A DNA stretch of 64,000 nt from Gammaproteobacteria bacterium (GTDB taxonomy: Bacteria > Pseudomonadota > Gammaproteobacteria > SZUA-152). The stretch is from assembly GCA_029882975.1 (NCBI GenBank), contig JAOUJW010000003.1, positions 67,090-131,089 of the forward strand, written 5' to 3'. The notes under the pieces were generated by a model that saw nothing but the letters and a program-made list of their open reading frames with translations, ran no database searches and was not told the origin of the DNA. This document shows positions 2 to 40,088 of this stretch, one piece after another. Both the position numbers and the translations under genes were made by a program. Position 1 is the stretch's first letter. Every line of letters starts with the position of its first letter.

Positions 2-730
2 CTAGGTAGTGCTTATATTGTCAATGATGAGCCCTTTAAAGCCATTGCTATATTAAAGGATGCTTTGAAGCAAGCGCCCGATAACAGTGGTCTGTTGAAC
101 GCCATGGGCGTGGCGTTTCATTTTTCGGAAAACAGTCTCAAGGCGCAGGATTATCTGCGTCGTGCCATGAGTCAAAGCAGCGGCTTTGCTGATCCCTTGT
201 ACAATTTGGGAATGATGGCTTATCTCGGAAACAATATGGAAGCGGCCAGGAGGTATTGGAAACAATATCTGGAACTGGACTCTAACAGTAATTGGGCGAA
301 AACCTTGCGCAGTCGCTACAAAGTGGATACGCAACTGGCCGTGTCTCGTGGCTTGATTTCAGTAAAAAACGAAATGCTGTCCGGCTTGCAGGTGGGGCAC
401 TATGCGGATGAAATTCCCCGTAGCTGGGGTAAAGGGGCGGTAAAATTGGTGTCTTTTAAGGATGCTCCCTTTACTACATCCGAATACGGCAATGGTATCA
501 CCACGTTGGCAGAAGGCGATGAGATTAGAGCGGTTCTCGCCGGTCTGGACTATGGCGGCGCCAGCAACCGCGGCATTAAAATTGGGGTTTCGCAAGAGCA
601 GGTGCTTAGCGCCTATGGTGTACCGTCATCTACATTAAATACGACTCTGGGGGCCAGTTGGGTTTACGCCAAAGAGCGCATAACTTTTCAAATCAGGGAC
701 AATTCTGTGGTTTCCTGGGTCATTTTTTGA
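2..730 (+). CDS. TPR repeat protein (5' partial, runs off window start) with C-terminal domain of unknown function
   Basis: Frame is open from position 2 in the same frame as the ATG at 65. TPR-like helices are visible (NAMGVAFHF..AQDYLRRAM..LYNLGMMAYLGNNMEAARRYWKQYLELD). Confidence 0.5.
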   Translation, partial: LGSAYIVNDEPFKAIAILKDALKQAPDNSGLLNAMGVAFHFSENSLKAQDYLRRAMSQSSGFADPLYNLGMMAYLGNNMEAARRYWKQYLELDSNSNWAKTLRSRYKVDTQLAVSRGLISVKNEMLSGLQVGHYADEIPRSWGKGAVKLVSFKDAPFTTSEYGNGITTLAEGDEIRAVLAGLDYGGASNRGIKIGVSQEQVLSAYGVPSSTLNTTLGASWVYAKERITFQIRDNSVVSWVIF

Positions 731-771
731 TTTCAATAGCGCAAGAGCATGGGTTAAAAGAGAGAGTACAT

Positions 772-3138
772 ATGGGTTGTAATTTTGAGGGTAAGCAGTT
801 TTTCCCAAAACGGTACATAGGTTTGGTTGTGGGTTTTTCCCTGTTGTTGGCGCAGAATGTTTTCGCCCTTGCAGAGAATGCGAAACCGGAAATCTCATCA
901 GGAATTGCGGATACTGATAATAAAACCAGAGCCGTGGAGTTGTTTAGTCTTGGGGAGTTCGGTGAGTCTATTGCCTATTGGAAAGCCGCACTTGCACAGG
1001 ATCAGGCCAGCGGTGATACAGAGGGGCAGGTTATTTCCTTGTACAACCTGTCCATTGCTCAACGGTCTGTAGGCGCTGTGACTAAGGCAATACGTAGTTT
1101 ACAAGAAGCTTGGCGCCGTGGGGTGAAAATCCACAACCCGGAACTCAAGGCGAGAATCAAAAGTAGTTTGGGTAGTTTGTTTTTGTATTCCGGGAAACAG
1201 GAAAAAGCGCTGGAATTGCTGCGTCAGGCGCGTCGGGATGCGGTGGCGATTAAGGATTGGGAACTGGAGTCCATGGTTTTAAATGATCTTGGGAATCTTT
1301 ATGCTGCACGGTCGCAGTATGACCTGGCATTGGGTACCTTTGAATTTGCCGCTTTGCTGGGTGAGCAAAACAAGAGTCCCTTGTTAACGGCCAAAGCCAA
1401 TACCAACATCACCTCGGTGTTGGTACAGCAAGGACGTGCGAAGGCGGCCAGTCGCAGTGCCGTTTCCGTATTACGTGGCTTACGGTCTCAATCGGTTTCC
1501 TATGAGTCCGTAATGATCTTGGCGAGTTTAGCCCAAGCTGTACAAGGTGTTATGCAATTGCCACTAAAACCTCAGGATCGGCTGGACCGCAAACAAATGG
1601 TTCATGAGGTGGTCAGGGCGATTAATCAGACCACAGATTTTCTCGATCGCTTGGCCAGCGGTCGTTTAGCATCGCGCGTCTATGGTGCTATGGCGGCTAT
1701 TTATGAGGCAGCTGAACAATGGGGTGATGCGGCTGCGTTAAATAGCAAGGCGATTTTTGAGGCACAAAAAGGCGAGTCCACCGATTTGTTATACCAGTGG
1801 CAGTGGCAAGCGGGGCGAATTTATAACAAACTGGGGCAGCAAGACGACTCGATTAGGGCTTACCGACTGGCTGTAAATGCCTTGCAGCCCATTCGTCAGG
1901 AACTGAGTAAGCGGCAATTGGGTAAAGATTCCCGGTTTTCAGAGACGCAAGGCAATGTCTATTTGGAGTTGACTGACAACTTGCTGAGAAAAACGGATAA
2001 TTTAAGCAATCCTCGTCAGCGAACCCAATTGCTATTGGAAGCCAGAAATACCATGGAGCTGCAAAAAGAGGCTGAATTACAGGATTATTTTAAAGACAGT
2101 TGTGTTGTTAATGCCAAGAACAACATTAAACACATTGATGAAACACTGGCGGATAATACGGCTGTTTTGTATCCCATATTACTTCCCGATCGTACGGAAT
2201 TACTGGTGAGCTTTGGCTCGGGGATGGAGCGATATACGGTTAAGAAAACCGAGGCAGAGGTTACTGAGGAGGTTAGAGCCCTACGGGTTCGCTTGGAAAG
2301 TCTGCGCACACGAGCCTATTTGCCTCATGCTCGAAAATTGTATCAATGGTTGATTCAGCCCATGGAAGCGGATTTTCAAAAACGCGGTATTAACACCTTG
2401 GTTATGGTGGCAGATAAATCCTTGCGTACCATCCCCATGTCCGTGTTGCATGATGGAGAGCAGTTTTTAATTAACAAATACGCTTTGGCGACTTCACCGG
2501 GGTTGAAACTCACTGACCCCAGGCCATTGCAGCGAGATAATTTGCAAATTCTACTAAGCGGATTAAGTGAGTCAGTACAAGGATTTCCGGCCTTACAATA
2601 TGTACGCGGGGAACTGGAGGAAATACAGGATTTGTATGTGGGTAAGTTGCTGCTAAACCGAGAATTTGTCAGCGCCAGTGTGGCGAAAGCTTTGCGGGAT
2701 ACCAATTACTCCGTTACCCATATTGCATCGCATAGTGTTTTTTCAGGTGACGTGGAACAATCCTATATCCTGACGTATGATGATCGAATCACTGTGGACC
2801 AATTGGGGCAATTTGCCGCTTTAAGTCGCAGTCGTTCCAAACCTATTGAGCTGTTGACCTTAAGTGCCTGCCAGACGGCAGCGGGAGATGATCGAGCGGC
2901 TCTGGGTTTGGCCGGCGTAGCTATTAAATCCGGGGCTCGCAGCGCCTTGGCCAGTTTGTGGGCAATAAATGATCAGGCTTCAGCTGTGCTGATTACGGAA
3001 TTTTATCGGCAGTTACGCGATCCGGTTGTTACCAAAGCGCAAGCCTTACAGCGTGCTCAGAGCAAGTTGATGCAGAACGTTCGGTATCGGCATCCGGGTT
3101 ACTGGTCTCCCTTCTTGTTAATTGGAAACTGGTTATAA
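772..3138 (+). CDS. Secreted TPR-repeat CHAT-domain protein (caspase-like clan CD peptidase fold)
   Basis: The ATG at 772 follows AGAGAG and avoids overlap with the upstream ORF. A signal-peptide-like N-terminus is present (GLVVGFSLLLAQNVFA). Multiple TPR-like repeats follow. The C-terminus has CHAT hallmarks (HIASHSVFSG..LLTLSACQTAAGD..ARSALASLWAINDQASA) with the His/Cys dyad in place. Confidence 0.75.
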   Translation: MGCNFEGKQFFPKRYIGLVVGFSLLLAQNVFALAENAKPEISSGIADTDNKTRAVELFSLGEFGESIAYWKAALAQDQASGDTEGQVISLYNLSIAQRSVGAVTKAIRSLQEAWRRGVKIHNPELKARIKSSLGSLFLYSGKQEKALELLRQARRDAVAIKDWELESMVLNDLGNLYAARSQYDLALGTFEFAALLGEQNKSPLLTAKANTNITSVLVQQGRAKAASRSAVSVLRGLRSQSVSYESVMILASLAQAVQGVMQLPLKPQDRLDRKQMVHEVVRAINQTTDFLDRLASGRLASRVYGAMAAIYEAAEQWGDAAALNSKAIFEAQKGESTDLLYQWQWQAGRIYNKLGQQDDSIRAYRLAVNALQPIRQELSKRQLGKDSRFSETQGNVYLELTDNLLRKTDNLSNPRQRTQLLLEARNTMELQKEAELQDYFKDSCVVNAKNNIKHIDETLADNTAVLYPILLPDRTELLVSFGSGMERYTVKKTEAEVTEEVRALRVRLESLRTRAYLPHARKLYQWLIQPMEADFQKRGINTLVMVADKSLRTIPMSVLHDGEQFLINKYALATSPGLKLTDPRPLQRDNLQILLSGLSESVQGFPALQYVRGELEEIQDLYVGKLLLNREFVSASVAKALRDTNYSVTHIASHSVFSGDVEQSYILTYDDRITVDQLGQFAALSRSRSKPIELLTLSACQTAAGDDRAALGLAGVAIKSGARSALASLWAINDQASAVLITEFYRQLRDPVVTKAQALQRAQSKLMQNVRYRHPGYWSPFLLIGNWL

Positions 3139-3438: not shown

Positions 3439-4029
3439 ATGCTTGCTGGTTTGAATAAATATTGGGCACTTGGTGCAGCGGTCATGTTACCGCTTGCGAT
3501 TCTCGGCGCGTGCAAACACCAAAACGGTGAATCCGTGAGTTTACAGCGTTTGTCAGATACCATCTATCAGATTGTCAAAGCGAACCGTCATGTCTACGCG
3601 CGTCACATCGTGCAGCGGTTGCATATGAATGACCAAACGGTGAAATTTGCCGAGCAATGGCAGGAGCTCAAAGCATTACCGGTGCCATCACAAATGTTGC
3701 GTATGGGTGCTGCGGAGGTGAATACCAGTAGCGGTGGTGATGTCCAATACAGCTTAAAGTCCCTGTGGGCCATCAATCGATCTCACTTTCCTGCTGAGAA
3801 TCAAGAGCGAGAAGGCTTGATTCATATTTTGAAAAATCCGGGTAAAAATTTCTACAGTGAAATAGAAGAGAGTGGGCAACGGTATTTTTTGGCAATATAT
3901 CCGGATATTGCTGTAGAACAGTCTTGTGTGGAATGCCACAATTCGCACCCAAACAGCCCTAAAAAAGATTTTCAGAAAGGGGACTTGATGGGTGGATTGA
4001 TTGTTCGGGTTCGGTTGCCTCAGAAGTAA
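3439..4029 (+). CDS. DUF3365 (Tll0287-like) lipoprotein with c-type haem motif
   Basis: Lipobox LAILGAC. The C-terminal signature SCVECHNSHPNSPKKDFQKGDLMGGLIV contains a CXXCH. Confidence 0.6.
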   Translation: MLAGLNKYWALGAAVMLPLAILGACKHQNGESVSLQRLSDTIYQIVKANRHVYARHIVQRLHMNDQTVKFAEQWQELKALPVPSQMLRMGAAEVNTSSGGDVQYSLKSLWAINRSHFPAENQEREGLIHILKNPGKNFYSEIEESGQRYFLAIYPDIAVEQSCVECHNSHPNSPKKDFQKGDLMGGLIVRVRLPQK

Positions 4030-4048
4030 TGAATCTGGGGGGCGGTTG

Positions 4049-4085
4049 AAAAAACAGCCTGTCCCAGCGAGCGCGGGTCAGGCTG
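4049..4085 (-). terminator. Candidate rho-independent terminator for the minus-strand cytochrome operon
   Basis: Inverted repeat cagcctg..caggctg (7-bp stem, long loop). On the minus strand it is followed by TTTTTT (AAAAAA on the plus strand at 4049-4054). It lies downstream of the gene ending at 4230. Confidence 0.35.
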
Positions 4086-4229
4086 TAACCTCCAGAGAGT
4101 AAGAGTAGATCCCGGTCAAGCCGGAACATTCCGTTCTTGGGTGTGTGGCAGCACCTAGAACAGGGTGCTAGTTTAGTGCCGGTGGGGTTACACAGAACTT
4201 ACATTTTCCACCAAAATTGACACCAAACG

Positions 4230-4883
4230 TTAAAGACTGGCGAAATATGCTCTCAATTCATCCACTTTATTTTGAGGTATGTTATTGAATGCGCCCATCA
4301 ATTCATAAGGGCCGCCATAAAGGGACAGGTTCCGGCTTAAGGGCATGCTTTTTAGAGCCAAATCACTTGCGTTGAAAGCACGACTGGTGTCATCGACGCC
4401 GGCGGCGTGACAAATAGCGCATTTAGCAGCATAGAATGCGCGTCCATTGGGTATGACCTCAGTACTGACGGTTATCACCACCGTACCTTCTGCTTTGGTT
4501 CCATCGGGGTCCAAGGCAATATAATTAAAACGATCTTCTCCGGTAAAGCCGGTGACGGGGGTATAGGTAAATCGGCCCCCACCCTCGTGGATCACGCTAC
4601 CACCTTGGGTACTGTTACTGTCGAAACTATCAATGCCCAGGACGTGACCGCTGCTGCTGGAATCATTATCCAATACGCTGACCACGCCACTGGAATCCGG
4701 AGGCAGGCTCAGGGTGTCATTCCCGATAGTGAGTTCAGCCGGCGGTGGTACGGGTGGTGGAGCCGATTGTGTGCCGCTGTCATAGCAGGTTACCACGGTG
4801 AGCGCCAGCAGGATGACGGGCATGACTTGGTAGAGATAAAACCGGCGGCGATGTTGGAAGTGCATTGTGATTTTGGTTCTCAT
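4230..4883 (-). CDS. Lipoprotein with a cadherin-like/Big domain fused to a class I cytochrome c domain
   Basis: N-terminal hydrophobic/lipobox region (VILLALTVVTC). An adhesin-type Ig repeat is present (VLDNDS..GRFTYTPVTGFTGEDRFNYIALDPDG..TVVITV). The C-terminus has CAICH (CXXCH). It sits 10 nt downstream of the hexahaem gene on the same strand. The true start may be at 4865. Confidence 0.65.
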   Translation of the reverse strand: MRTKITMHFQHRRRFYLYQVMPVILLALTVVTCYDSGTQSAPPPVPPPAELTIGNDTLSLPPDSSGVVSVLDNDSSSSGHVLGIDSFDSNSTQGGSVIHEGGGRFTYTPVTGFTGEDRFNYIALDPDGTKAEGTVVITVSTEVIPNGRAFYAAKCAICHAAGVDDTSRAFNASDLALKSMPLSRNLSLYGGPYELMGAFNNIPQNKVDELRAYFASL

Positions 4884-4893
4884 ACAACATCAC

Positions 4894-6759
4894 CTACTGC
4901 GTGGTTAGGAAGTTGCTGATAAGGCCGGTGTCGCTGCCGGACCCGCTGGTACTCAAATAGGGTTGTAATTGTTGCATGTCATTTTTATTCACAATGGCCC
5001 GGTTGATTTCGCTTTGTGTGGCGCCGACAATATTGTCCACGGGACCGCCCTGGCCATTGACGCCGTGACAGGTTTCACAATACACATGATAGAGCCCTGC
5101 GCCGTCGACAGGTTTGGTACCCCCGCCACCGGAGGCGAGAAACTCGACAATCAATTGTTGTTGGGTGTTGTCCAACTGCAGGGATCGCATCAGAGCAATT
5201 CGGTTAATGGCATTTTCGACAAACCTCAAGGACGTACCTGTGACCACTTTATAAGTGCCACCACGACCGTCGGTACCGTGACACACCGAACAAAATACGC
5301 CATACAATCCCGCGCCATCCACGGGTAACGGCCCGCTGCCGCCGCTGCTCAGGAAGTTGCCAATGGCGTTCAGTTGGGTTGCATTGAGCTGTAACGGGTT
5401 CATCCAGCTTTCCGCTGCAATGGCGGCGCTGATCATGGTAGACGGCGCTCCGGTTACGGCCTTAAATTTACCGCCATGACCACCGTTGCCGTGACACACA
5501 GCACAGAAAATCCGGTACAGACCGGCGCCGTCAGTCGGCAGGCTGCCACTGCCTCCGGCGGTGAGAAAATTTGCCACCAGTTGAGTTTCCTCCAGCGACA
5601 GGCTGATGTTCTGCATGGCCGGTATATCGGCAATGGCAGCTGCTATCATGGGGAAGGAAGCACCGCTAACGCCTGACTCAATACCGCCGCGGCCATCAAT
5701 GCCATGGCAGGCGGAACAGAACATGCCATATAGGCCCGGACCGTCGTTAGGCCTGGGGGGAGGCGCAGTGCTGCCCACCAGCAGAAAATCTGCGATGAGC
5801 TGAACTTCATTGTTGGTGACAGAGATAGCGCTCATCGCGGCAATATTGTTCAATGCTGTTGTGATTTGTGTTGTTGTGGCACCCACTACTGCGACTGCAG
5901 AACCTCCGAATCCGCCGGTGCCATGACAGGCAAAACAATATTGGTTATAAAGCGCTTCACCTTCGGGTGAGCCGGCATTGGCGTTGATGATTACGGTGGT
6001 CGCGGCGGCAGCGGTGAGCTTATCGTTATCGGTTACTGCCATGGTAATGGTATAGCTGCCTTCGTTCATGTAACTGTGATTAACAACCGCTCCTTGTTCA
6101 AAAGCACTGCCGTCACCGAAGTCCCATAAATATCGTGATATGGTTCCGTCGCCATCCACGGATGCGCTCGCATCCAGTGATATGGAATCTCCGGGTTGAG
6201 CCGCGTACGGAGCGCTGATATGCGCTTCGGGAACGATAGGCCCCGGAGCCGGTACAATTTCAATATCCAAACTGCTAAGGGCAACGCTATCTCCTTCCAT
6301 GGTGGCGTCGTTGTCAGCGGATACAACAGCTGCATATAGAGTCACAACCCCGGTAGTGACCGGCGCTGTAAAGGTAAACGTCCATTCTACGCCGGCGTTA
6401 CCGACGCTATAGGGGGAACTGTGTTTCAGTTCCCGTTGCTCCAGTACCATATTGCTGCTGCCAGGCGTTAAGGTGCCTGCTGTGGCGCTGATATTGAAAC
6501 CCCCCAGGTTTTGTTGGCCTCCGCTCATAATCAAGGTGAAACCGGCACTGCTGCCGGCCTCCATGTTGATGGCGCCGTTTAGACTGATGGAAGGGGGGAT
6601 ACCTCCCGTGTGGCAAGCACTGCAACTGGATCCGGCGTTGGTATTGGGATTGCCCGATTGGCCGGTAATTCCGCTGCTCAAAGCGGTGGCCTGTTGGGGT
6701 ATGCTCAGTGAGAGTAGCAAGAGAAAATAAAAACTATTTGGTAATGAACGTTGTACCAT
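4894..6759 (-). CDS. Secreted multi-domain cytochrome c (six CXXCH motifs in tandem class I cytochrome c-like domains) with a PKD domain
   Basis: Signal peptide present (FYFLLLLSLSIPQQATA). Six CXXCH motifs: CSACHTGG, CFACHGTGG, CSACHGIDGRGG, CAVCHGNGGHGG, CSVCHGTDGRGG, CETCHGVNGQGG. Each motif is preceded by a repeated ..DGAGLY..FC.. segment. A PKD signature is present (YLWDFGDGS..GSYTITMAVTDND). Confidence 0.75.
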   Translation of the reverse strand: MVQRSLPNSFYFLLLLSLSIPQQATALSSGITGQSGNPNTNAGSSCSACHTGGIPPSISLNGAINMEAGSSAGFTLIMSGGQQNLGGFNISATAGTLTPGSSNMVLEQRELKHSSPYSVGNAGVEWTFTFTAPVTTGVVTLYAAVVSADNDATMEGDSVALSSLDIEIVPAPGPIVPEAHISAPYAAQPGDSISLDASASVDGDGTISRYLWDFGDGSAFEQGAVVNHSYMNEGSYTITMAVTDNDKLTAAAATTVIINANAGSPEGEALYNQYCFACHGTGGFGGSAVAVVGATTTQITTALNNIAAMSAISVTNNEVQLIADFLLVGSTAPPPRPNDGPGLYGMFCSACHGIDGRGGIESGVSGASFPMIAAAIADIPAMQNISLSLEETQLVANFLTAGGSGSLPTDGAGLYRIFCAVCHGNGGHGGKFKAVTGAPSTMISAAIAAESWMNPLQLNATQLNAIGNFLSSGGSGPLPVDGAGLYGVFCSVCHGTDGRGGTYKVVTGTSLRFVENAINRIALMRSLQLDNTQQQLIVEFLASGGGGTKPVDGAGLYHVYCETCHGVNGQGGPVDNIVGATQSEINRAIVNKNDMQQLQPYLSTSGSGSDTGLISNFLTTQ

Positions 6760-7335
6760 AATTTTCTACCAACAATAGTACCCGTACCTCGGTGCGCTCA
6801 TGTATCTCCTGAAATTGATTTTCCTGCTGTCATGGTGGTGCAATGGGCCACTGATGTCTGTATTACGTTGGGCAATCAGAGAGGGTTCCCTTTATTTATA
6901 GTCCCAAACCCTATGCTTGCGCAATCAAAATAATAGTGATTTAAGTATAAAATCAGCTTATGTTGACTGACGCTTAAACCCATACACAATTGGATTTTGT
7001 CATACAAACAAGCGTTTATTGGTTTGGCGGGGTGGCCAGGCAGTTGCCCATTGTCCGTGGTTTTCCTACGTGTTACGGCGCAAGTTCGGTAATTACAGAG
7101 GAAAATAGCGCGCGTGTCTTACGTATAAAAAAGAAGTGCAGAGTATTGATTGTTGTGATGTAAGCGTAGTGTGGTATAGGCGGCGAATGGTTTTTGATGT
7201 ATATCATAGTGGCTCTAGAGTATTGCGACTATGCTGGGGTTACATAAACGGTAGTAACAGAATGTGTATCAAGTCCAGTTCCGCTAATAATGGTCTAGAC
7301 TTCTTTGAAGGCCACCCTGTCGAGCGGAGAAGAAA

Positions 7336-8433
7336 ATGGTGAAACGCAGACAATTGGTGATGATCTGTGGGGGACTTGTGTTGTTCTTCCAAGGACCGTT
7401 TTTCGCGTTCGTACAAATCTCTTTATTGCAAAACCCTTTGTTCCTAAGCCAGTTGTTCCAAAACCGGTTGTTTCAAAACGCATACTCGCAACGCGCCTTT
7501 CTGGTAAGCAATGGTGTCGTCTGGGCAGAGGAGCGAAAAGTCTTTACCGAAGACGATATTCAAGAGTCTGATATAAAGCCGGCCGGAAGTATTCCTTATT
7601 CCCAAAAAGGTGCGGATACCTGCCTAAAGTGCCATGATGAAGATTACGCTTTTCCCGTCTTGGATATTTTCTACGGCGTCCACGGTAACCGTGTTAATAA
7701 GCGCTCACCCATGGCGGGTTTGCAATGTGAGTCTTGTCATGGTCCGGGTGGTTTGCATGAGTTAGAACCTTTTGTAGGTAAACCCAGGGCTCCGATTATT
7801 AAATTTGGGCGCGACAGCCAAACTGCTGTCAGTAAACAAAATTCAATGTGTTTACAGTGTCATGCGGACCAACACAGAGCACAGTGGCGGGGTAGTGCAC
7901 ACCAGAGCCAAGCGATGCGGTGTGTGGATTGTCACACTTTACATGTGCCCAAAGACCCAATTATGCAACGCGATACGCAGGTGGATAAATGTTTCCAATG
8001 CCACCCAAAACAACGAGCTGAATTCCAGCGTTCTTCGGTCCACCCGGTTCGATTTGGGAAAATGCAATGTACCCAATGCCACAATCCCCACGGTGCGGTA
8101 GCGCCATTCTTGTTGCGTAACAACAGCAGTCGCTTATGTTATACCTGTCACGCGGATAAGCGTGGTCCGTTCCTTTGGGCTCATGCGCCGGTCTCGGAGG
8201 ACTGCGGTATTTGTCACAGGCCACACGGTTCGGTTTACGATGCTTTGCTAAAAAAGCGAGCCCCGCTGTTGTGTCAGCAATGTCATGCCAACGGGCATTC
8301 CAGTGTCAAATATGGCAGTGATGGTTTAGCTCAGCAAACCCCTAATGCCTTTTTGTTGGCTAAATCCTGTTTGAATTGTCATTTTCAGATTCATGGTTCT
8401 AATCATCCTTCCGGGGTGAAGTTAATGCGTTAG
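7336..8433 (+). CDS. Decahaem c-type cytochrome, DmsE/MtrA/MtoA/PioA family
   Basis: Ten CXXCH motifs in about 290 aa: CLKCH, CESCH, CLQCH, CVDCH, CFQCH, CTQCH, CYTCH, CGICH, CQQCH, CLNCH. Signal-peptide-like N-terminus. Followed 34 nt later by an MtrB-like barrel gene. Confidence 0.8.
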   Translation: MVKRRQLVMICGGLVLFFQGPFFAFVQISLLQNPLFLSQLFQNRLFQNAYSQRAFLVSNGVVWAEERKVFTEDDIQESDIKPAGSIPYSQKGADTCLKCHDEDYAFPVLDIFYGVHGNRVNKRSPMAGLQCESCHGPGGLHELEPFVGKPRAPIIKFGRDSQTAVSKQNSMCLQCHADQHRAQWRGSAHQSQAMRCVDCHTLHVPKDPIMQRDTQVDKCFQCHPKQRAEFQRSSVHPVRFGKMQCTQCHNPHGAVAPFLLRNNSSRLCYTCHADKRGPFLWAHAPVSEDCGICHRPHGSVYDALLKKRAPLLCQQCHANGHSSVKYGSDGLAQQTPNAFLLAKSCLNCHFQIHGSNHPSGVKLMR

Positions 8434-8467: not shown

Positions 8468-10573
8468 ATGAAACGAGTGCAGTTCCTGCTTTTAATGATG
8501 CCAATAATGTCTTTAGTAGTTATGTGCTTGCCGCTTAGCGTACTGTATGCACAAGAATCTCCTTTAGACGTGGCAGGAGGCACAGCCGGTTGGGAATGCA
8601 AATGGTGTCCTGTTACCGATGTAACAGCTCACGCAGAGATAGAGTTAGGCGCGGGGTTTGTTACGGAAGATTCTATGTATGGAGACTACACAGGGTTGGG
8701 TGATCGTGGCGGTTATGCCATCGCAGCGTTTAATACAGCAAAACCGCCGGGTGATGCCGGCTGGAGTATGTCAGTGGAAGGGCAGGACTTGACTCTGGAT
8801 AGCCGTCGCTTGCTTTTGTCCAGTGAGTCAGCGGGGGTGATGGGTGTCGCGCTTGAGTACGATCAGATTCCTCGGCAGCACAGTGCCGTGCTTACGCCGT
8901 ATCAGGGAGAGTCGCAACAGGTGTTGCCTGTAACCTGGGTGAGCGCAGCAACGACAGGCGGGATGAGTCAGCTTAACAGCAGTTTGCACGAAGTGGTAAT
9001 CGGATCAGACAGAAAAAATCTGAATATTGATGCGGTATATCATCCATCGCCACAATTGTCGTATGAATTGAGTTTTCACCAATTGCAAAAGCAAGGTATA
9101 CGCATCCAAGGCTTGGCATTGGGTAATGTGTTTGTGACAGCAAGAAGTGCTTTGCTAACAGCTCCGGTGGATCAAGAGAGTCGCAATGCTCGCTTCAATG
9201 TGGCCCTACAGCAATCGCGCTTACAGACCTCGTTTTCTCTGGAGGTATCGGAATTTACCAATGCAGTGAAGGCCTTGCGCTGGGAAAACGCTTTTTCCGA
9301 ACCTGTTGGGGTCAGTCAAGGTCAGGCTGGCGCGGAACCCGGTAACGATATGCAACGTCTATCAGCGCAAGCCAGTTACATCGTCAGTGAACGCAGTCGC
9401 GCTTTTGCCGGACTAGCGTATGGCAGGATGGGACAGGATGAGTCCTTCCTGCCCTATACAGTGAATGTGGCTTTGACCCCCTCGGCTTTGCCGCGTAATT
9501 CCCTGAGAGGGGAGATTTTCACCTTCGATTTATCGCTTGGCTTTCTCAGTGCCCTTACTGAGCGCCTGCAATTGCAGGCAAGCTATATTCAGCAGGAACA
9601 GGATAATAATACAGACAGAGCCACATATACCTATGTTTCTGCGGATACCGCTATTAGCGGAGATCGGGCCAATTTTCCCTATAGTTTTCGTAAACGTCTG
9701 TTGCAAACTCAAGGCCGCTACAAATTCTCAGCTCTTCATCGTATTACCGCAGGTTATGACTATGAGTGGAATGATCGCACTTACCAGGAAATCAGTTCCG
9801 CCAAAGAGCAGAGGTTGTGGGGTGCTTATGTTGGAGAATTACAGCAGGGAACCGGTTTGAATCTTAAATTGGAACACTTGGATCGCATGGGGGAACGCTA
9901 CAGTCCGGTGGCAGAAATTGTTCCTGCGGAGAACCCCGCGCTGCGTAAGTACAATATGGCAGACCGCATTCGGGACCGAATCAATATTTCTGTTAGTTCG
10001 AGCACTTTCAGTCAGGTTGATTTTGCTCTGCAAGTGGAAATGTCTATGGACGAATACGATCATTCTGCCGTGGGACTGTTGGATAGTAAGGAACGCAGTT
10101 ATTCCGTGAACCTGAACTGGCACTTAAGTCGGTCAGCCTCCATAACAAGTGATTATAACCACACCGTGATGCGATCCTCGCAGGCGGGTAGCCAAGCGGC
10201 GTCCTCTTGGTATGCCCAGAATGACGAGACAGTGAATACAATTGGTCTGGGCTTGCAATGGCAGTTCGAAAATCGAACCAATCTGGGATTGAGCTACGAT
10301 TATTCCCGATTTTCCGGCGAAACCCGGATCTCGGAGATTGCGAATTTTCCCCAATTACTTTCTTCACGTCATAGCCTGGCTTTACAGGGTCACTATGTAC
10401 TGGACGCCCGTAGCGGTTTAAATACGGTATTTCGCTATGAAAAATATCGTGAAGAGGATTGGGCTTTGCAGGACGTCGCCGTTGATACTTTAGATAATGT
10501 GTTGTCTGTGGGTGAAGGGAATCCGGATTATCGAGTTTGGGTGGTGGCATTAAGTTATAACATGCGTTTTTAA
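8468..10573 (+). CDS. MtrB/PioB-family decahaem-associated outer-membrane beta-barrel protein
   Basis: About 700 aa with a signal peptide. The N-terminal CXXC motif (GWECKWCPV) is typical of MtrB. The sequence is rich in alternating beta-strand patterning and ends in C-terminal ..YNMRF. It sits immediately downstream of the decahaem gene. Confidence 0.75.
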   Translation: MKRVQFLLLMMPIMSLVVMCLPLSVLYAQESPLDVAGGTAGWECKWCPVTDVTAHAEIELGAGFVTEDSMYGDYTGLGDRGGYAIAAFNTAKPPGDAGWSMSVEGQDLTLDSRRLLLSSESAGVMGVALEYDQIPRQHSAVLTPYQGESQQVLPVTWVSAATTGGMSQLNSSLHEVVIGSDRKNLNIDAVYHPSPQLSYELSFHQLQKQGIRIQGLALGNVFVTARSALLTAPVDQESRNARFNVALQQSRLQTSFSLEVSEFTNAVKALRWENAFSEPVGVSQGQAGAEPGNDMQRLSAQASYIVSERSRAFAGLAYGRMGQDESFLPYTVNVALTPSALPRNSLRGEIFTFDLSLGFLSALTERLQLQASYIQQEQDNNTDRATYTYVSADTAISGDRANFPYSFRKRLLQTQGRYKFSALHRITAGYDYEWNDRTYQEISSAKEQRLWGAYVGELQQGTGLNLKLEHLDRMGERYSPVAEIVPAENPALRKYNMADRIRDRINISVSSSTFSQVDFALQVEMSMDEYDHSAVGLLDSKERSYSVNLNWHLSRSASITSDYNHTVMRSSQAGSQAASSWYAQNDETVNTIGLGLQWQFENRTNLGLSYDYSRFSGETRISEIANFPQLLSSRHSLALQGHYVLDARSGLNTVFRYEKYREEDWALQDVAVDTLDNVLSVGEGNPDYRVWVVALSYNMRF

Positions 10574-10584
10574 TGGAGGCGGTG

Positions 10585-11175
10585 ATGCGGGCACAATTGT
10601 TAGTGAAAAGTTTGTTGGTTGCCTGTATCAGTCTGGGGCCAGGAATATTACCGGCGCAGACTGATCCGCCGGCATCACAGTGTGCAATGTGCCATGGCGT
10701 TGATGGAAACAGTCCCAGTGCGTCGGCCCCTTCGATTGCCGGTATTACCCCGTACTACTTTAAATACACCATGGACGCGTACAAAAACGGTGGACGCAAC
10801 TCAGACATTATGAAAATGTTTGCGGGGCAGTTATCCGCAGCCGATATAGAACAGTTGGCACTATTTTACAGCGGGCAAAAACCTCTGGCACGTCAGCAGG
10901 CCATGGATTCAAACAAGGCGGCGCAAGGGCAAGGTCTGCATCAGCGTTATTGTGAAAAATGCCATAGCAACAATGGTGGTGTGAGCATCGATGGTTACGG
11001 AGTCCTGGCGGGGCAATGGACAGATTATTTGCGTCTGACTCTCCAAGAGTACCTTGCCGGAAAAAGACGTACTAATGCTATGATGCTGACCAAGCTACGG
11101 AAAATGCAAAGGCTTGAAGGGGAAGGTGCGCTGGAACGGTTGATTCAATTTTATGCCGGGGCACAACCGGATTAG
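10585..11175 (+). CDS. Dihaem cytochrome c (c4-like)
   Basis: GGAGG lies 5-9 nt upstream of the ATG at 10585. Signal peptide present. Two CXXCH motifs (CAMCHGVDG, CEKCHSNNGG), each followed by a Met-containing segment. Coupled to the end of the MtrB-like gene. An alternative start at 10573 overlaps the stop codon. Confidence 0.7.
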   Translation: MRAQLLVKSLLVACISLGPGILPAQTDPPASQCAMCHGVDGNSPSASAPSIAGITPYYFKYTMDAYKNGGRNSDIMKMFAGQLSAADIEQLALFYSGQKPLARQQAMDSNKAAQGQGLHQRYCEKCHSNNGGVSIDGYGVLAGQWTDYLRLTLQEYLAGKRRTNAMMLTKLRKMQRLEGEGALERLIQFYAGAQPD

Positions 11176-27365: not shown

Positions 27366-29699
27366 ATGTCTAGTTATCCAAATAGTTTGTATAAATTTGG
27401 AAAAGGATTTCTTGCTGCTGCCATCGTCGCAGCGCCGCTAACAGTAACGCCGTTAACAGCAAAGAGTGCTGATGTGACACTGATTCAAGTGTCCGATTTG
27501 CATGGTAATTTGGTGCCACACGCCGGGGTTATTGAATCCGCAGGTGCACCGGATCGTTATGTTACCCAAGGCGGTGGTATGGCCAAGGTGGCAACGGTAG
27601 TCAACAGCATCCGTGCCAGTTCCCATGCGCACTTAACATTAGGGGTGGGTGACTCCCTTCACGGCAGTGCTGAGGTGCTGTTTACCATGGGCGATGCCAT
27701 TATGCCGGCCTTTAATGCTCTGGGGCTGGAGGCATACACGCCGGGTAACTGGGAGTTTGCTTATGGTCCGGCGGTTTTTCGAGCACGTTTTACCAATTTG
27801 TGTAAAGCCAATCCCAATTGGCAATTTCCCGGTCCGGGTAATAATCCAGGCAATAGTGTGCCGGGGCCCCATGTCTTATGCCCTATTGTGCCGCCCAATG
27901 CACGTGTGATGACCGACTCTGATGGTGTGCCAGGCGTGACGCCGGCCAACTTCGAGGTTTTGGCGAACAATTTGTACAATGGTGGTCCTTATCCCACAGC
28001 AGCACCGTTTTACGGTGACCGGCCTTTAAAGGCCTACAAGGTGTTTGAAAAAGGCGGTGTGAAAATTGGTGTTATCGGTATCACCGCTGCGATTGTGCCG
28101 CAACAACCTCCGGTATTCGGACGCACCTTTGAATTTACTCAGGGTATTGAAGAACTGCCTGCAGACATTGCGGCGGCAAAGGCGGCAGGGGCACAAATCA
28201 TCGTTGTCATGTCCGAGTTGGGCTTGCCGCAAAATGTGCAAATTGGCCGGGAATTTCCCGAAGTGGACGTTGTCCTATCCGCCCATTCTCATGAGCTGAC
28301 CTTAGGTGCCATTCTCGCGGACAGTAACGGTTTTGAAATGACCGCCCCTGGAACTGAATTGTCGGGTTCACAATTGGCGCGCCTGCAAAAGGGTGCAGCA
28401 GTCATTGTTGAGGCCGGTGAAGATTTATATGTAGGCCGTTTGGATCTGAAAATTTCTGACGGGAAAATCCAAAACATCGTATGGCAGGCCATTCCGGTCG
28501 ATGATGATGTGGTCGAAGATGCTACCGTGGCCGCGCTGGTCGCGGATCAGGAAAAATATTTTCTCGCCGGTACGGATTTCAAAACCCATACCTTTTTACC
28601 GGCGGCTTATTGCCGTAGTTTTGCCGCCCCCAATCCTTGCGATGCGGATGCCGATGGCGTCGTGCGCCGCGGCTTGCGCTTAACCGATCCTTTGGACTTG
28701 GTGGTAGGAACTACCGACGTGTTATTGCACCGTCATGAAGACCTGGAAGGCGTGATGAATAACTTTATTGCCGATGCCTTTAGAGGTACCTTGGAAGTGG
28801 CCGCCAAAAGTGCTCGTACGGAATGGGCCAATTTGGATGTGGTTTCCATGACCAACGGTTTTCGTTTTGATACGGTGGTGCTACCGGCGCACTTGGTGGC
28901 CGAAGGGCAAAGCTTTCGCGACGGTCGCAAGCCCGGTGAAGTGACTTTGCGCGACCTGTGGGGCTATTTTCCGGTTGCCGCAGGTATGGCTGCCGCAGAC
29001 TACAACGGTGTAGTTATCGAAGAGAATTTGAATAATATTTTGGCCAATGTATATGCGCCCAATCCTTACATTCAGCGCGGCGGTTGGTATTTAGGTTTGT
29101 CCAGCAATATGAAACAGCGGGTTGACGTGGTGCAGCGTCCGCTAAGCACCTCCGGTTCTCGCATCGTTGATACGCATATCAACGGTAAACTCATCGATCA
29201 CAGTAAGCGTTATATTATTGCTTCCTGCTACGGTCATACCTTTCCTATAGGCCGATCCTGCCGTGCCGAGGGTGGTGCCAATACCATTTTCTTTACCTTG
29301 GCCGACCCGGACAACTATAGCAGTGCTTTGGGGTTTGCCGATCCCATTCCCACACCGGCGGGACAACCTTTGATCGACAATAAAACGCCCAGAACTCCCA
29401 TATTCCGCGCAGCGCCGGATTATTATCTGCATCCGGTACACACCCTGCGACGGCATTTGGATGCCAGCGGTGGTTCTATCAATAATGCCAATCATGGCGT
29501 CGGTCGCGTGGTTCACGTGAATTCACGCCTGATTGATAATTGCGCCCCTCCAGCCAAACCCAATAAAGTCTGTGTCAACGATACCAAAACCTTCCTGGTG
29601 GATCCTATCGAGAATCACCATTACGAAGATGCTGTCGTTCAATCTATCGAAGGTCTTGGTCCTTCCTTCCTGGAACGCAATATTTCAGTAACTAAGTAG
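27366..29699 (+). CDS. Secreted bimetallic phosphoesterase of the 5'-nucleotidase/SoxB family (unusually long, 777 aa)
   Basis: Signal peptide present. Metallophosphatase motifs: LIQVSDLHGNL, GDSLHGSAEV, GNWEFAYGP (compare GHWEF in SoxB and GNHEFD in 5'-nucleotidases), SAHSHE. A Pro/Gly-rich insertion of roughly 120 aa follows the N-terminal lobe. The C-terminal half is substrate-binding-domain-like. Confidence 0.55.
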   Translation: MSSYPNSLYKFGKGFLAAAIVAAPLTVTPLTAKSADVTLIQVSDLHGNLVPHAGVIESAGAPDRYVTQGGGMAKVATVVNSIRASSHAHLTLGVGDSLHGSAEVLFTMGDAIMPAFNALGLEAYTPGNWEFAYGPAVFRARFTNLCKANPNWQFPGPGNNPGNSVPGPHVLCPIVPPNARVMTDSDGVPGVTPANFEVLANNLYNGGPYPTAAPFYGDRPLKAYKVFEKGGVKIGVIGITAAIVPQQPPVFGRTFEFTQGIEELPADIAAAKAAGAQIIVVMSELGLPQNVQIGREFPEVDVVLSAHSHELTLGAILADSNGFEMTAPGTELSGSQLARLQKGAAVIVEAGEDLYVGRLDLKISDGKIQNIVWQAIPVDDDVVEDATVAALVADQEKYFLAGTDFKTHTFLPAAYCRSFAAPNPCDADADGVVRRGLRLTDPLDLVVGTTDVLLHRHEDLEGVMNNFIADAFRGTLEVAAKSARTEWANLDVVSMTNGFRFDTVVLPAHLVAEGQSFRDGRKPGEVTLRDLWGYFPVAAGMAAADYNGVVIEENLNNILANVYAPNPYIQRGGWYLGLSSNMKQRVDVVQRPLSTSGSRIVDTHINGKLIDHSKRYIIASCYGHTFPIGRSCRAEGGANTIFFTLADPDNYSSALGFADPIPTPAGQPLIDNKTPRTPIFRAAPDYYLHPVHTLRRHLDASGGSINNANHGVGRVVHVNSRLIDNCAPPAKPNKVCVNDTKTFLVDPIENHHYEDAVVQSIEGLGPSFLERNISVTK

Positions 29700-30313: not shown

Positions 30314-31315
30314 TTACCCCCCGGTCATAGACATAAATCTTACGACCTGCTGCGGTTTTTCCACAAACTCATGTTTTTCCGGTTTACGTCTTATGGCGTC
30401 CACAATAGCTTGTTCAATGTCGGTGTCGCTGGCGCCGGATCGCAACAGGGGGCGCAGTTCCACTTTGTCGTTTTGCCCCAGACACAAATACAGCGTGCCT
30501 TCGGCGGATAGACGTACGCGATTACAGCTGTCGCAAAAGTGTTGCGAGATAGGCGTGATGAAACCAATGCGTAACTCCGTGTCGGCTACCCGGACATAAC
30601 GAGCCGGGCCGCCGCCGTTCATTACGCTGGGAAGCAAACGGTACTTCTGTTCCAAGCGCGCTTGCACTTGCTCCAGGCTGATATAGTGGTCCGTGGCGTT
30701 TTGTCCTGTGTTGCCTATGGGCATGGTCTCAATAAAACGCAGAGTAAAATCGTGCGCTATGCAAAAATCTACCATGGCTTCGATTTCATCGTCGTTAACA
30801 CCGCGCATGACCACCATGTTGATTTTGATGGGTTTAAAACCCGCCTCTTTGGCCGCCATAAGGCCGGCCATGACTTTTTCTAATTTGCCGCCATTGGTAA
30901 TGGTTTTGAAACGTTCTGGCTGAAGGCTGTCCAGGCTCACATTAATGCGGCTCACGTTGGCCTGCTTGAGAGCATGGGCATGGCGTTGCAGTTGCACTGC
31001 ATTGGTACTTAAGGATAAATCGTCTATGCCCGGCAGGGCGGAGAGTTGTTGTGCCAGCTGTGGCAGGTTTTTGCGTAACAGCGGCTCGCCTCCGGTGATG
31101 CGAATGCGATTAACGCCCAAGCGGCCAAAAGCGCCGATTAAACGCTGGATTTCATCGGCGTTTAACCAATGTTCCGGTTCTTCAAAGCTTTTAAATCCCT
31201 TAGGCAAGCAATAGACACAACGTAAATCACAACGGTCGGTCACGGACAGGCGCACGTATTCAATACGGCGACCGAACGCGTCATAAAGTCCGTTGTTGTT
31301 GCTTTGCGAGCTCAT
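30314..31315 (-). CDS. moaA: GTP 3',8-cyclase MoaA (molybdenum cofactor biosynthesis)
   Basis: Radical-SAM N-terminal motif (YVRLSVTDRCDLRCVYCLP). C-terminal Cys cluster (CDSCNRVRLSAEGTLYLCL). Confidence 0.85.
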   Translation of the reverse strand: MSSQSNNNGLYDAFGRRIEYVRLSVTDRCDLRCVYCLPKGFKSFEEPEHWLNADEIQRLIGAFGRLGVNRIRITGGEPLLRKNLPQLAQQLSALPGIDDLSLSTNAVQLQRHAHALKQANVSRINVSLDSLQPERFKTITNGGKLEKVMAGLMAAKEAGFKPIKINMVVMRGVNDDEIEAMVDFCIAHDFTLRFIETMPIGNTGQNATDHYISLEQVQARLEQKYRLLPSVMNGGGPARYVRVADTELRIGFITPISQHFCDSCNRVRLSAEGTLYLCLGQNDKVELRPLLRSGASDTDIEQAIVDAIRRKPEKHEFVEKPQQVVRFMSMTGG

Positions 31316-31414: not shown

Positions 31415-32389
31415 TTATACGGTCTGATAGTACATATTTTGTGGGTGATTGGCCTGGGCAAAAAAGAACCAGCGCTCCACCAATAAACCCAGGTATTGCA
31501 CGATAAATGCGGTGACATACAAGCCGGTGTTGTGGCTGGATAAGCCAATGCTTAAAAACAATACCGGTAAAGGAAAGACCATGATCAAGAATATCCATTT
31601 GACGGATTTTAAGAACAGCGCTGTTTTTCCATGGAAAAATTCTCGGGTGTTAAAAGTGCCACCCATGGCGCCCATGGCTTTTTGTTGAATATTAATGTGA
31701 CGTACGCCAATGGCGGACTTGAGGCTGGACTTGGCTTTCAGGCGCCGATTGCGCAGCAGTGATGCGCCGCGGGTGACCAGGGCAAGTAAGGTCAGGATAA
31801 TGGCCCAGTCGGCGTAATAGTCCACCAATTGAGAGTTGTTGCGGCTGGCGTATACGGTGCACAGGGTGTATCCGGAAGCCATACCCAGCAAGGTGTAATT
31901 GATGACGGTTAAGGGAGAATGCCACTCCTGTAAAAACTTAAGGCAAGCGTAGATCATGCCGGTGCAGACGTACAGGGCAAAACAGACCACCAGTCCGGCG
32001 ATTCCAATCAAAACGGTCAAGCGCACTTCGGGGATGGTAGCGGTGCCGAAAGTGGCCGGATTGATGTTGAAATAGTGCAATACGCCGTAAACAAACACCA
32101 ACAGCATAAACAAGGGCAGGGCGATGACTTCGCGGGATAACCAGGAAGTGCGCCATTGCGCCGCTGCGCGCCAAGCCCGCTCCGGATGTCCCAGATGAAA
32201 GAAAGAAGCAAACAGTCCGGCGATGAGAAAAATCATGGCCAACAGGGCGCCACCGCTGTAAAACTCACCGTTCTGCGGCGGTAAGCCGGACATAATGCTA
32301 TAGCTTTGCCCCAGCACCAGGGCCAGAAACAAACCCTGACCCACCCCAATCAAGGTGGTCAGGAAAACAACGGAAAATGGAGGATTCAT
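31415..32389 (-). CDS. NrfD/PsrC-family polytopic membrane anchor subunit (SoeC-like)
   Basis: About 8-9 predicted transmembrane helices over 324 aa. Third gene of the molybdoenzyme operon. Confidence 0.65.
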   Translation of the reverse strand: MNPPFSVVFLTTLIGVGQGLFLALVLGQSYSIMSGLPPQNGEFYSGGALLAMIFLIAGLFASFFHLGHPERAWRAAAQWRTSWLSREVIALPLFMLLVFVYGVLHYFNINPATFGTATIPEVRLTVLIGIAGLVVCFALYVCTGMIYACLKFLQEWHSPLTVINYTLLGMASGYTLCTVYASRNNSQLVDYYADWAIILTLLALVTRGASLLRNRRLKAKSSLKSAIGVRHINIQQKAMGAMGGTFNTREFFHGKTALFLKSVKWIFLIMVFPLPVLFLSIGLSSHNTGLYVTAFIVQYLGLLVERWFFFAQANHPQNMYYQTV

Positions 32390-32457
32390 TGTTTAACAAA
32401 CTCCTGTGAAAATTGTTCGGTATTTGGTGCGCACAATCGAGTTGGCCATATATCGTG

Positions 32458-33186
32458 TTACCATGACGTGGAATCCTCCAAATACGGCCCGTCGTCGTCC
32501 TGAGGCAACGGACCCTCCTTCTTGAGCGGGTTGTCCACACGCACCAGTTCGTCTTCGTGAATATGCTGCTTGGTCTTACGCCGGGGCAAATAGTGATTGG
32601 CCGGCTGAGTACCCCATTCGGGCATGAGCGCATAGCCGCCGTTTTCACGAATGGCAATGGATGCTTCCGAATTGGGGTCGTGTACATCACCAAAAATACG
32701 CGCACTGGTGGGGCAGGAGATAACGCAGGCCGGTCGGCGTTCCGTTTCAGGCAGCTCTTCATTGTAGATGCGGTCTACGCACAAAGTGCATTTTTTCATG
32801 ACTTTTTCGTGCTGATCCAACTCGCGGGCACCGTAGGGGCAAGCCCAGGAACAGTAACCGCAGCCGATGCACTTGTCGTAGTTCACCAGTACTATGCCGT
32901 CTTCTTTGCGTTTGTAGCTGGCGCCCGTGGGACACACGGGTACACACGGGGCGTCTTCGCAATGCAGGCAGCTCTTGGGAAAGTGCACCGTTTCCGTGTG
33001 GGGAAAGACGCCCACTTCATAAGTCTGCACTCGATTAAAGAAAGTGCCCGTGGGGTCTTTGGCGTAAGGATTGTCATCCGTCATCGGTCCTGCGGAACCG
33101 GAGGAGTTCCACTGCTTACAGCTGGTCACACAAGCGTGGCAGCCAACGCAGACATTTAAATCAATAACTAAAGCAAGTTGCGTCAT
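32458..33186 (-). CDS. Four-cluster [4Fe-4S] ferredoxin-type iron-sulfur subunit (DmsB-like; SoeB-like)
   Basis: Four Cys clusters: CVGCHACVTSC, CLHCEDAPCVPVCP, CIGCGYCSWACP, CTLCVDRIY..CVISCP. Start taken at MTQLALVIDLN, which leaves a 10-nt gap after the catalytic subunit gene. Confidence 0.75.
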   Translation of the reverse strand: MTQLALVIDLNVCVGCHACVTSCKQWNSSGSAGPMTDDNPYAKDPTGTFFNRVQTYEVGVFPHTETVHFPKSCLHCEDAPCVPVCPTGASYKRKEDGIVLVNYDKCIGCGYCSWACPYGARELDQHEKVMKKCTLCVDRIYNEELPETERRPACVISCPTSARIFGDVHDPNSEASIAIRENGGYALMPEWGTQPANHYLPRRKTKQHIHEDELVRVDNPLKKEGPLPQDDDGPYLEDSTSW

Positions 33187-33196
33187 GGCTGTTCCT

Positions 33197-36088: not shown

Positions 36089-36547
36089 TTAGGGTTCCTG
36101 AATAAAGCAAACGAAAAGTATATATCAGAATATTCGCATATACCTAATCAGCAATATTGAGCGTGGAATAGAAAAATTATATTTACTACTCAATTGCCGT
36201 CTAAAGGGTAGGAATTTCAAGGTCTTTATCTATTCTAGCCTGGAAATGATGAATATAGGCTGACTAGTATGCAAAATCGTGTCAATTCTGTGAAACCTGA
36301 GACACAAAATCCACTACGACTTTTGAGGCCATGGTTGGAACTGAATAAGGTTGGAAGGAACGGGATTTATTAATTAATGGCTTTATTAAAAAGCCGAATA
36401 GCAATAACGGGCAATTGCGAATAGAATAGGCGGCGCAAATAATTTTCAGTCAACCTTTGCAAAACAAGAACATATTAACTGTAACTCCGAAAGCGGTAGA
36501 CAGTGGTTGACACAACTTTCGGTAGATACTGGAGGAGGGAAGCAATA

Positions 36548-37837: not shown

Positions 37838-37841
37838 GAAA

Positions 37842-40070: not shown

Positions 40071-40088
40071 GCGGAGGGGACAAGAACA

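Follow-up and report, generated by a model that had tools for sequence, protein, structure and literature searches.

The stretch of DNA considered here, hereafter called the window, comprises 64,000 nucleotides of contig JAOUJW010000003.1 from the assembly of a Gammaproteobacteria bacterium (GCA_029882975.1, positions 67,090 to 131,089). The subject of this analysis is a pair of genes in it, A and B, which lie codirectionally on the minus strand and are divergent from mtrA, mtrB and a gene for a dihaem cytochrome (Table 1). A encodes a secreted protein with six haem-binding motifs, and B a putative lipoprotein with one such motif. The two genes are spaced by only 10 nt (GTGATGTTGT), and this gap contains a ribosome-binding site for B (AGGTGA) that overlaps the end of A. 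As B, in addition, comes after A wherever a locus continues beyond that gene, the two genes most likely constitute an operon, and the operon-like pairing that an initial annotation of this DNA had proposed is thus supported. Open reading frame (ORF) calls and sequence likewise bore out its gene coordinates, the 10-nt gap, the PKD motif, the six CXXCH motifs and the divergent arrangement. A promoter scan of the intergenic region between A and mtrA (6760-7335) gave nothing above chance, and a combined promoter and terminator scan of positions 3900-7400 gave fewer sites than shuffled sequence. A protein identical to A has already been deposited as 'c-type cytochrome [Gammaproteobacteria bacterium]'.

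The genes that face the pair encode a conduit of the MtrAB/MtoAB/PioAB type, i.e. a decahaem cytochrome of the DmsE family and, adjacent and codirectional, a porin of the MtrB/PioB family. Such conduits carry electrons across the outer membrane. The window MtrA scores 292.7 bits against TIGR03508 (cut-off 192.2), has 10 CXXCH motifs and matches chain A of PDB entry 6R2Q with E 4e-93, while the window MtrB scores 367.3 bits against TIGR03509 (cut-off 240) and matches PF11854 with E 1.8e-117 and chain B of 6R2Q with E 1.5e-58. Both proteins are full-length homologues of the respective chains in this solved MtrCAB complex. The dihaem class-I protein encoded next to MtrB reaches 95.7 bits against the PdsA family NF049874, which is under the cut-off of 330.

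About 34 homologues of A with the same architecture were found, all of them from metagenomes or metagenome-assembled genomes labelled Gammaproteobacteria. Members of this family carry an N-terminal haem motif that is either CXXCH or a CX3CH/CX4CH variant, one or two PKD domains, and 3-10 class-I units with a constant period of ~71 aa. The genomic context was surveyed at ten loci besides the window (L001, L002 and L006-L013). In nine of these, an orthologue of B lies directly downstream of A, the exception being L002, where the contig ends inside A. MtrA and MtrB adjoin A-B in the window and in eight of the ten loci (L001, L002, L006-L010 and L012), which substantiates the initially claimed tie of the pair to porin-cytochrome genes; in L013, A lies at a contig edge. 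The dihaem gene adjoins MtrB also in L002, L006-L009 and L012. An MtrC-like decahaem cytochrome was found neither in the window nor among the genes called at the other loci (L001 and L002 by tblastn only). The divergent arrangement of the window recurs in most loci; in L010 and L012, the two most distant members, A-B are codirectional with mtrAB. The order is MtrB'-A-B-MtrA-MtrB in L010 and A-B'-MtrA-MtrB-NapC/CymA-like-dihaem, all codirectional, in L012, and in both cases A-B occupies the place that mtrC has in mtrCAB. As the adjacency of A-B and MtrAB persists down to ~35-40% protein identity and across two gene orders, the synteny argues for a functional coupling of A-B to MtrAB.

Table 1. 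Features of the A-B locus and of the adjoining conduit genes; positions refer to the window.
Feature	Positions	Strand	Evidence
Gene A, secreted hexahaem protein, 621 aa	4894-6759	-	ORF call and domain profiles
A residues 1-26, predicted Sec signal peptide, putative cleavage between ATA and LS, no lipobox	6682-6759	-	read from sequence
A residues 27-172, choice-of-anchor V beta-sandwich with one CXXCH (C46, C49, H50)	6244-6681	-	
A residues 177-258, PKD domain (WDFGDGS...YTITMAVTDND)	5986-6231	-	PF18911
A residues 261-621, five tandem minimal class-I monohaem units	4897-5979	-	PF13442, self-alignment
Gene B, putative lipoprotein monohaem cytochrome with Ig-like domain, 217 aa	4230-4883	-	ORF call, Pfam
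B Cys33, predicted lipobox cysteine (VVTC, then YDSG), followed by a Pro-rich tether	4785-4787	-	
B residues 53-139, Big_9/cadherin-like Ig domain	4467-4727	-	PF17963, PF17892
B residues 145-217, putative monohaem cytochrome c domain (CAICH 155-159, LMG Met196)	4233-4451	-	
Divergent intergenic region, A to mtrA, 576 bp	6760-7335	.	sequence
MtrA/MtoA-type decahaem cytochrome (DmsE family)	7336-8433	+	TIGR03508, 10 CXXCH
MtrB/PioB-family outer-membrane porin	8468-10573	+	TIGR03509, PF11854
Dihaem class-I cytochrome, PdsA-like, presumed periplasmic carrier	10573-11175	+	NF049874, below family cut-off

The initial annotation had read A as six tandem class-I cytochrome units with a PKD domain inserted among them. 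Six CXXCH motifs are indeed present (at residues 46, 275, 348, 419, 490 and 561) and comprise all 12 cysteines of the protein, and profile searches confirmed class-I cytochrome c and PKD folds in A and an Ig/cadherin-like fold in B. The self-alignment, however, yielded five homologous units and no sixth, as the first CXXCH lies outside class I, in a domain that profiles and BLASTP show to be unrelated, and the PKD domain does not interrupt the array but lies between this N-terminal haem domain and the array. The class-I region matches PF13442 with E 1.6e-33 (115.2 bits, cut-off 27) and PF00034 with 70.5 bits (cut-off 21.3). When the C-terminal part is cut at its haem motifs, five units of 71-75 aa result. 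They have a period of 71-73 aa, are pairwise 32-51% identical and are joined by Gly/Ser/Pro linkers of the GGSGxLPxDGA type, 13-15 residues in length. Because the signature of two Cys, His and Met is invariant, together with one Leu, in 28 aligned units from five family members, with the distal Met ~30 residues downstream of the haem His, the units can be assigned from their sequence to the His/Met-ligated class-I monohaem cytochromes. Tandem repeats at the DNA level were not found in positions 4200-6800, and the protein repeats are old and diverged. For the PKD domain, the PF18911/PF00801 test gave a match to PF18911 with E 1.7e-19, above threshold, and the WDFGDG motif is present. The AxA site of the signal peptide is kept in homologues, and the C-terminus (...LISNFLTTQ) has no hydrophobic or Arg-rich tail. 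Pfam and NCBIfam profiles detected no catalytic domain in A or B.

The N-terminal domain of A belongs to a family of its own. The choice-of-anchor V profile NF041895 matches residues 18-164 with E 2e-39 (134.8 bits, cut-off 42), and BLASTP shows similarity of this domain to the class-I units only around the haem motif. An AlphaFold2 model of residues 1-262, based on 29 homologues, has a predicted local distance difference test score (pLDDT) of 87, with a beta-sandwich ahead of the PKD sandwich. Against the MXAN_6652 family NF041894, A reaches 108.6 bits, which is under the equivalog cut-off of 200, and the MYXO-CTERM tail is absent. Among 1.84 billion cluster representatives, a HMMER scan found 1018 relatives of the N-domain, 284 of them at E<=1e-10. 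Among the best 150 of the 1018, the domain always starts right after the signal peptide, most proteins are 200-300 aa long, and many end in GGCS-hydrophobic-RRR tails that resemble MYXO-CTERM; other ends are C-terminal membrane helices, dockerin-like ends and a recurrent [YF][LMI]P motif. A single CXXCH is found in 126 of the 147 newly retrieved proteins from these best 150, and ~15 of the best 150 join the domain with 5-12 haems, several of them with a C-terminal transmembrane anchor. In 156 N-domains, C46, C49 and H50 are conserved to ~100% and H113 to 83%, which makes H113 a candidate for the distal haem ligand. The choice-of-anchor V family of monohaem domains is thus large, and most of its members have the layout of anchored surface proteins; the literature searched gave no characterization of this haem domain family. 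With their conserved CXXCH, the N-terminal 150 aa of A are a bona fide member of the choice-of-anchor V domain family (NF041895). A typical member has 200-300 aa, one haem and a sorting tail at the C-terminus, whereas A is tail-less and has the domain fused to a PKD domain and a class-I array. The N-domain was also compared with the large domain of cytochrome f, a protein whose haem is ligated by the N-terminal alpha-amino group. The identity to it is 10-11%, and the scores of generic Ig-like sandwiches are almost as good; cytochrome f is absent from the Foldseek top 50 for the N-domain, and A has neither the small domain nor the C-terminal transmembrane helix of cytochrome f.

Within the same family, 15 of the 147 choice-of-anchor V proteins end, within their last 16 residues, in [YF][LMI]P-x(3-10), e.g. 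IYLPLTLRND or KVYLPVVTRE, and this end may be a C-terminal sorting signal. Proteins with this end include P0080, P0098, P0107, P0128, P0131, P0184 and P0187, and the motif often follows a Pro/Thr-rich linker.

In case of B, Cys33 is kept, after a hydrophobic stretch, in all eleven orthologues from the related loci and the protein searches, which supports the initial description of B as a lipoprotein. The orthologues continue with F/Y-D/E-S-S and a Pro-rich linker. The residue at position -1 of the lipobox is mostly the usual G or A (SGC, SAC, PGC) and is N in three, while in the window it is an atypical Thr (VVTC), the lipoprotein call being read from the sequences. As the lipobox is conserved and Asp is absent at position +2 after the Cys, these features point to a lipoprotein anchored in the outer membrane. 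The initial annotation further described B as an Ig/cadherin repeat fused to a C-terminal cytochrome. The first part stands, as the domain matches PF17963 (Big_9) with E 5.6e-13 (50 bits, threshold 23.6) and PF17892 (Cadherin_5) with E 1.7e-8 (34.6 bits, threshold 26.5) and is modelled by AlphaFold2 as a beta-sandwich with pLDDT 77-95. For the second part, the CAICH motif is present and the Pfam match is sub-threshold; matches in the PDB are weak (PsbV, E 0.013). C155, C158, H159 and M196 are invariant in six orthologues, and it is this conservation of the CXXCH and Met residues that argues for a cytochrome. The orthologue in L012 has 113 aa and consists of lipobox, linker and putative cytochrome domain (56% identity) without the Ig domain, and the conserved core of B therefore appears to be a lipid-anchored monohaem cytochrome to which the Ig domain is an optional addition.

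To what known systems can the pair be compared? In the PDB, the profile of the A units matches CcoP, the actinobacterial QcrC dihaem subunit, c553 and c6, as well as domains II and I of PgcA (8QJG, E 4.2e-9; 8QJ6, E 7.2e-9; profile positions 4-66). Among the listed hits, only PgcA I/II, the QcrC cytochrome domain and small monohaem cytochromes of the c553/c6 type match nearly the whole unit, and a search with a single unit also finds PgcA chains, remotely (E 0.01). PgcA of Geobacter sulfurreducens (PDB 8QJ6, 8QJG, 8QK0) is an extracellular triheme lipoprotein cytochrome that is required for the reduction of Fe(III) and Mn(IV) oxides; it has a cofactor-less N-terminal domain and three ~60-aa monohaem domains on (PT)x linkers, of which domains I and II are His/Met-ligated, and it was presented by its authors as the first of a class that uses tethered diffusion and not a packed haem chain (PMC11520253). 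Like PgcA, A strings ~60-aa monohaem domains on linkers behind an N-terminal domain that is not of class I, all of its units have the His/Met signature of PgcA I/II, and a lipid anchor is part of the system, here on B. Differences are the number of units (five in A and 3-10 in orthologues, as compared to three), the linkers (Gly/Ser/Pro of 13-15 aa instead of long (PT)x stretches), the lack of a lipobox on A itself, the additional haem-bearing beta-sandwich and PKD domain, a last unit that is not bis-His, and the genetic coupling to MtrAB, in Gammaproteobacteria.

With MtrC/OmcA, as seen in the MtrCAB complex (6R2Q), A-B shares the codirectional position upstream of mtrA-mtrB in L010 and L012, the inclusion of a lipoprotein and the inferred role as surface partner of MtrAB. 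In contrast, there is no sequence or domain relationship to MtrC/OmcA/MtrF, as A and B give no match to the MtrC/MtrF domain profile PF22113 and have six and one haem motifs instead of ten. At least five of the six haems of A would be His/Met-ligated in separate small domains, whereas the ten haems of MtrC/OmcA are bis-His-ligated and arranged in a staggered cross, and in A-B the function would be split over two polypeptides, with the lipobox only on B. The MtoAB and PioAB systems of Sideroxydans and Rhodopseudomonas are similar in being MtrC-less conduits of the MtrAB type that work with small class-I cytochromes, but their described accessories are the periplasmic monohaem protein MtoD, the HiPIP PioC and the inner-membrane CymA or MtoC (PMC5566968). 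A pair of cytochromes with PKD, choice-of-anchor V or lipoprotein features is not among the accessories described for MtoAB/PioAB in the literature searched, and none of the accessories reported for Mtr/Mto clusters there (CymA, MtoC, MtoD, PdsA, NetBCD and group-specific cytochromes) resembles A or B. Secreted proteins that combine several small His/Met c domains with binding modules are known from Teredinibacter turnerae (TERTU_2913/3803) and from Cellvibrio (Cbp2D, PDB 8Q1V) (PMC10916295). These differ in being linked to carbohydrate-active enzymes and not to porin-cytochrome genes, and in their other accessory domains; one domain weakly matches the A units, the similarity being limited to the haem-binding helix. 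The initial annotation had called the combination unusual. This is true insofar as targeted literature searches gave no published description of the A-B pair, but extracellular tethered monohaem proteins as such are already known from PgcA and TERTU_2913. The pieces, namely the MtrAB conduit, class-I units, PKD/Ig domains and PgcA-like tethered haems, are thus known, and it is their combination beside MtrC-less conduits that is apparently undescribed.

Taking synteny and domain anatomy together, we propose, with a probability of roughly 55%, that A and B form an accessory module of an MtrC-less MtrAB/MtoAB-type conduit, and most likely serve as its partners at the cell surface. Extracellular proteins are the usual setting of PKD and Big_9 domains. 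An extracellular wire, as suggested in the initial annotation, gains plausibility from the surface-anchor habit of the N-domain family, from the mtrC-like position of the genes in L010 and L012, and from the likeness of the units to the extracellular PgcA. We infer that B would be held at the outer membrane by the lipid on Cys33 and the Pro-rich tether, presenting one haem, and that A would be Sec-exported and anchorless, with its N-terminal haem sandwich, a PKD domain that may serve as spacer or adhesion domain, and a string of five haem units. B could then relay electrons, in one or the other direction, between the string of haems in A and the haem of MtrA that sits where the MtrB barrel opens to the outside. 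Along the string, transfer would occur by collisions or close contacts of neighbouring domains, in analogy to the tethered diffusion of PgcA. With such a string, the conduit would reach roughly 15-30 nm farther out to minerals, electrodes or other cells, and the 3-10 units of the orthologues may reflect a tuning of this reach by tandem duplication. The N-domain, PKD and Ig modules might supply docking or surface contact. Within the periplasm, the link from MtrA to the inner membrane would be the conserved dihaem cytochrome, in L012 together with a quinol dehydrogenase of the NapC/CymA type.

A bolder version of the idea, for which we would give somewhat less than even odds, is that A-B represents a new class of outer-surface partner of MtrAB that replaces MtrC. 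B would then be the adaptor and A a 'haem-bead' wire of 3-10 units that works by PgcA-like tethered diffusion, with the N-terminal, cytochrome-f-like haem sandwich as docking or substrate-contact site.

Several points speak against a function of A-B as surface partners of the conduit. In L011, the 8 kb upstream and the 3 kb downstream of A-B contain no MtrAB. The cytochrome domain of B reaches only 18.2 bits against PF13442, below the threshold of 27, and its helical fold in the AlphaFold2 model is of low confidence (pLDDT 34-49). Class-I His/Met cytochromes typically are periplasmic carriers, and the default of the Lol system is to place lipoproteins on the periplasmic face of the outer membrane, so that surface exposure needs a further export step; in case of MtrC, this exposure requires a type II system. 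Secretion genes were not found next to the cluster. The C-terminal anchors from which the N-domain family takes its name are missing in A, and the linkers of A are much shorter than those of PgcA, so that the units might be packed rather than tethered. Moreover, if the five His/Met haems are high-potential, an inward transfer from A to the bis-His haems of MtrA would be uphill. The converse argument, that His/Met ligation implies a high potential and this in turn an inward flow, was considered and rejected, as the His/Met domains of PgcA serve the reduction of Fe(III) oxide (PMC11520253), so that the ligand pair by itself is no measure of the potential.

What alternatives exist for a module at the cell surface? 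The main rival, which we regard as less likely than the surface module, is that A and B act as a periplasmic relay. In such a constellation, B would reside in the inner leaflet of the outer membrane at the periplasmic end of MtrA, and A would span the periplasm to bc1, a cbb3 oxidase or a CymA-like quinol dehydrogenase, taking the role of MtoD or PioC, as would suit an Fe(II)- or cathode-oxidising lifestyle. Default Lol sorting and the absence of nearby secretion genes agree with this arrangement, as does the resemblance of the A units to CcoP and QcrC domains. Five to ten domains of ~3 nm with their linkers would match the width of the periplasm, the Hdr-like and Psr/Phs-like genes of the window fit a lithotroph, and even PgcA, when trapped in the periplasm, can replace periplasmic carriers (PMC11520253). 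Against such a relay speak the conserved dihaem cytochrome, a presumed periplasmic carrier that the cluster already has, the use of choice-of-anchor V, PKD and Big_9 as building blocks of surface proteins, and the gene order in L010 and L012, which mimics mtrC-mtrA-mtrB.

Distinctly improbable, in our view, is a separate extracytoplasmic redox system that shares with MtrAB only its regulation or a genomic island, and that, for example, delivers electrons to a secreted or surface enzyme, detoxifies peroxide or metals, or oxidizes soluble substrates. The L011 locus would be easily understood in this way, genes for CCP_MauG, YtkA and SoxB-like/metallophosphatase proteins recur near the module, and extracellular Teredinibacter proteins with similar small cytochrome domains have a role other than extracellular electron transfer (PMC10916295). 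Without a functional coupling, though, it is hard to explain why MtrAB stays adjacent down to 35-40% identity and in two gene orders, and A and B have no catalytic domain of their own. The possibility that the repeats and CXXCH motifs are chance or low-complexity features, or that the ORFs are not real genes, is already refuted by profile E values of 1e-33 and 1e-39, by the ~34 homologues that share the architecture, by the invariant haem ligands and by the 32-51% identity of the protein repeats.

The question behind the proposed surface module is how MtrC-less conduits reach solid donors or acceptors, which matters for iron oxidation, electro-autotrophy and corrosion. To our knowledge, a surface partner (MtrC/OmcA) is known only in Shewanella-type systems, and the A-B locus offers a conserved and experimentally tractable candidate partner for MtrC-less conduits. 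If the proposal is true, a PgcA-like mechanism extends to uncultured Gammaproteobacteria. A function would be assigned to the haem-binding choice-of-anchor V family, which comprises >1000 clusters at 50% identity, and the length dependence of electron transfer could be studied in the orthologues, whose 3 to 10 units make them a natural series of wires. The bolder version would mean that MtoAB-type conduits, so far thought to have no extracellular cytochrome, can have one, and that tethered monohaem wires are a widespread solution for long-range electron transfer outside Geobacter.

Some further observations concern the related loci. L010, the most divergent locus, encodes, immediately upstream of A-B, a second porin of the MtrB/PioB family (5456-7447, 663 aa) that has no MtrA of its own. 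A SoxB-like/5'-nucleotidase-family metallophosphatase (740-860 aa), a YtkA-domain protein and a dihaem CCP_MauG protein adjoin the MtrAB module in L006 (593-4750) and L012 (11025-14398) and may form a second conserved accessory set; SoxB-like and CCP relatives are also encoded in the window, farther off (27366-29699, plus strand, and 53358-54458, minus strand). L006 (GCA_975971605.1, contig CDLUOP010000020.1), with genes for the dihaem protein, MtrB, MtrA, A and B, is deposited as Kaarinaea lacus. This name belongs to a heterocyte-forming cyanobacterium (Validation List 223), and the contig probably stems from a bacterium associated with the Kaarinaea lacus culture or is mislabelled. The label was considered as a clue to iron metabolism and rejected, Kaarinaea lacus being a cyanobacterium. 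Two remote matches, P0037 and P0046, are proteins of ~850 aa with a lipobox-like N-terminus and 15 CXXCH motifs in a regular super-repeat of one or two class-I units followed by a CXXCH pair 16 residues apart. They have Gly/Ser/Thr linkers and are modular multihaem proteins of another type.

In the window itself, A-B is flanked by genes for a Tll0287-like and a CHAT protein, neither of which is conserved in the other loci, and both were therefore not counted as part of the module. The Tll0287-like protein (PF11845; 3439-4029, plus strand, convergent with B) has a c-haem motif, CVECH, and may be a haem-based sensor. The CHAT-TPR protein (826 aa) is encoded at 658-3138 (plus strand), and a caspase-domain (Peptidase_C14) protein at 56948-58078 (minus strand). 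A Psr/Phs/Ttr-like molybdopterin oxidoreductase with iron-sulfur and NrfD-type subunits is encoded at 31415-36088 (minus strand), with MoaA at 30314-31315, and an Hdr-like set of HdrA, an HdrA-MvhD fusion and HdrC- and HdrB-like genes at 36503-41620 (plus strand). These genes suggest a host with a sulfur-based energy metabolism. The Hdr-like complex, the Psr/Phs-like molybdoenzyme and the SoxB-like protein fit a sulfur-metabolising lithotroph, which does not by itself settle the direction of electron flow. Signalling genes of the GGDEF/EAL and methyl-accepting chemotaxis protein types also abound in the window (41817-53361).

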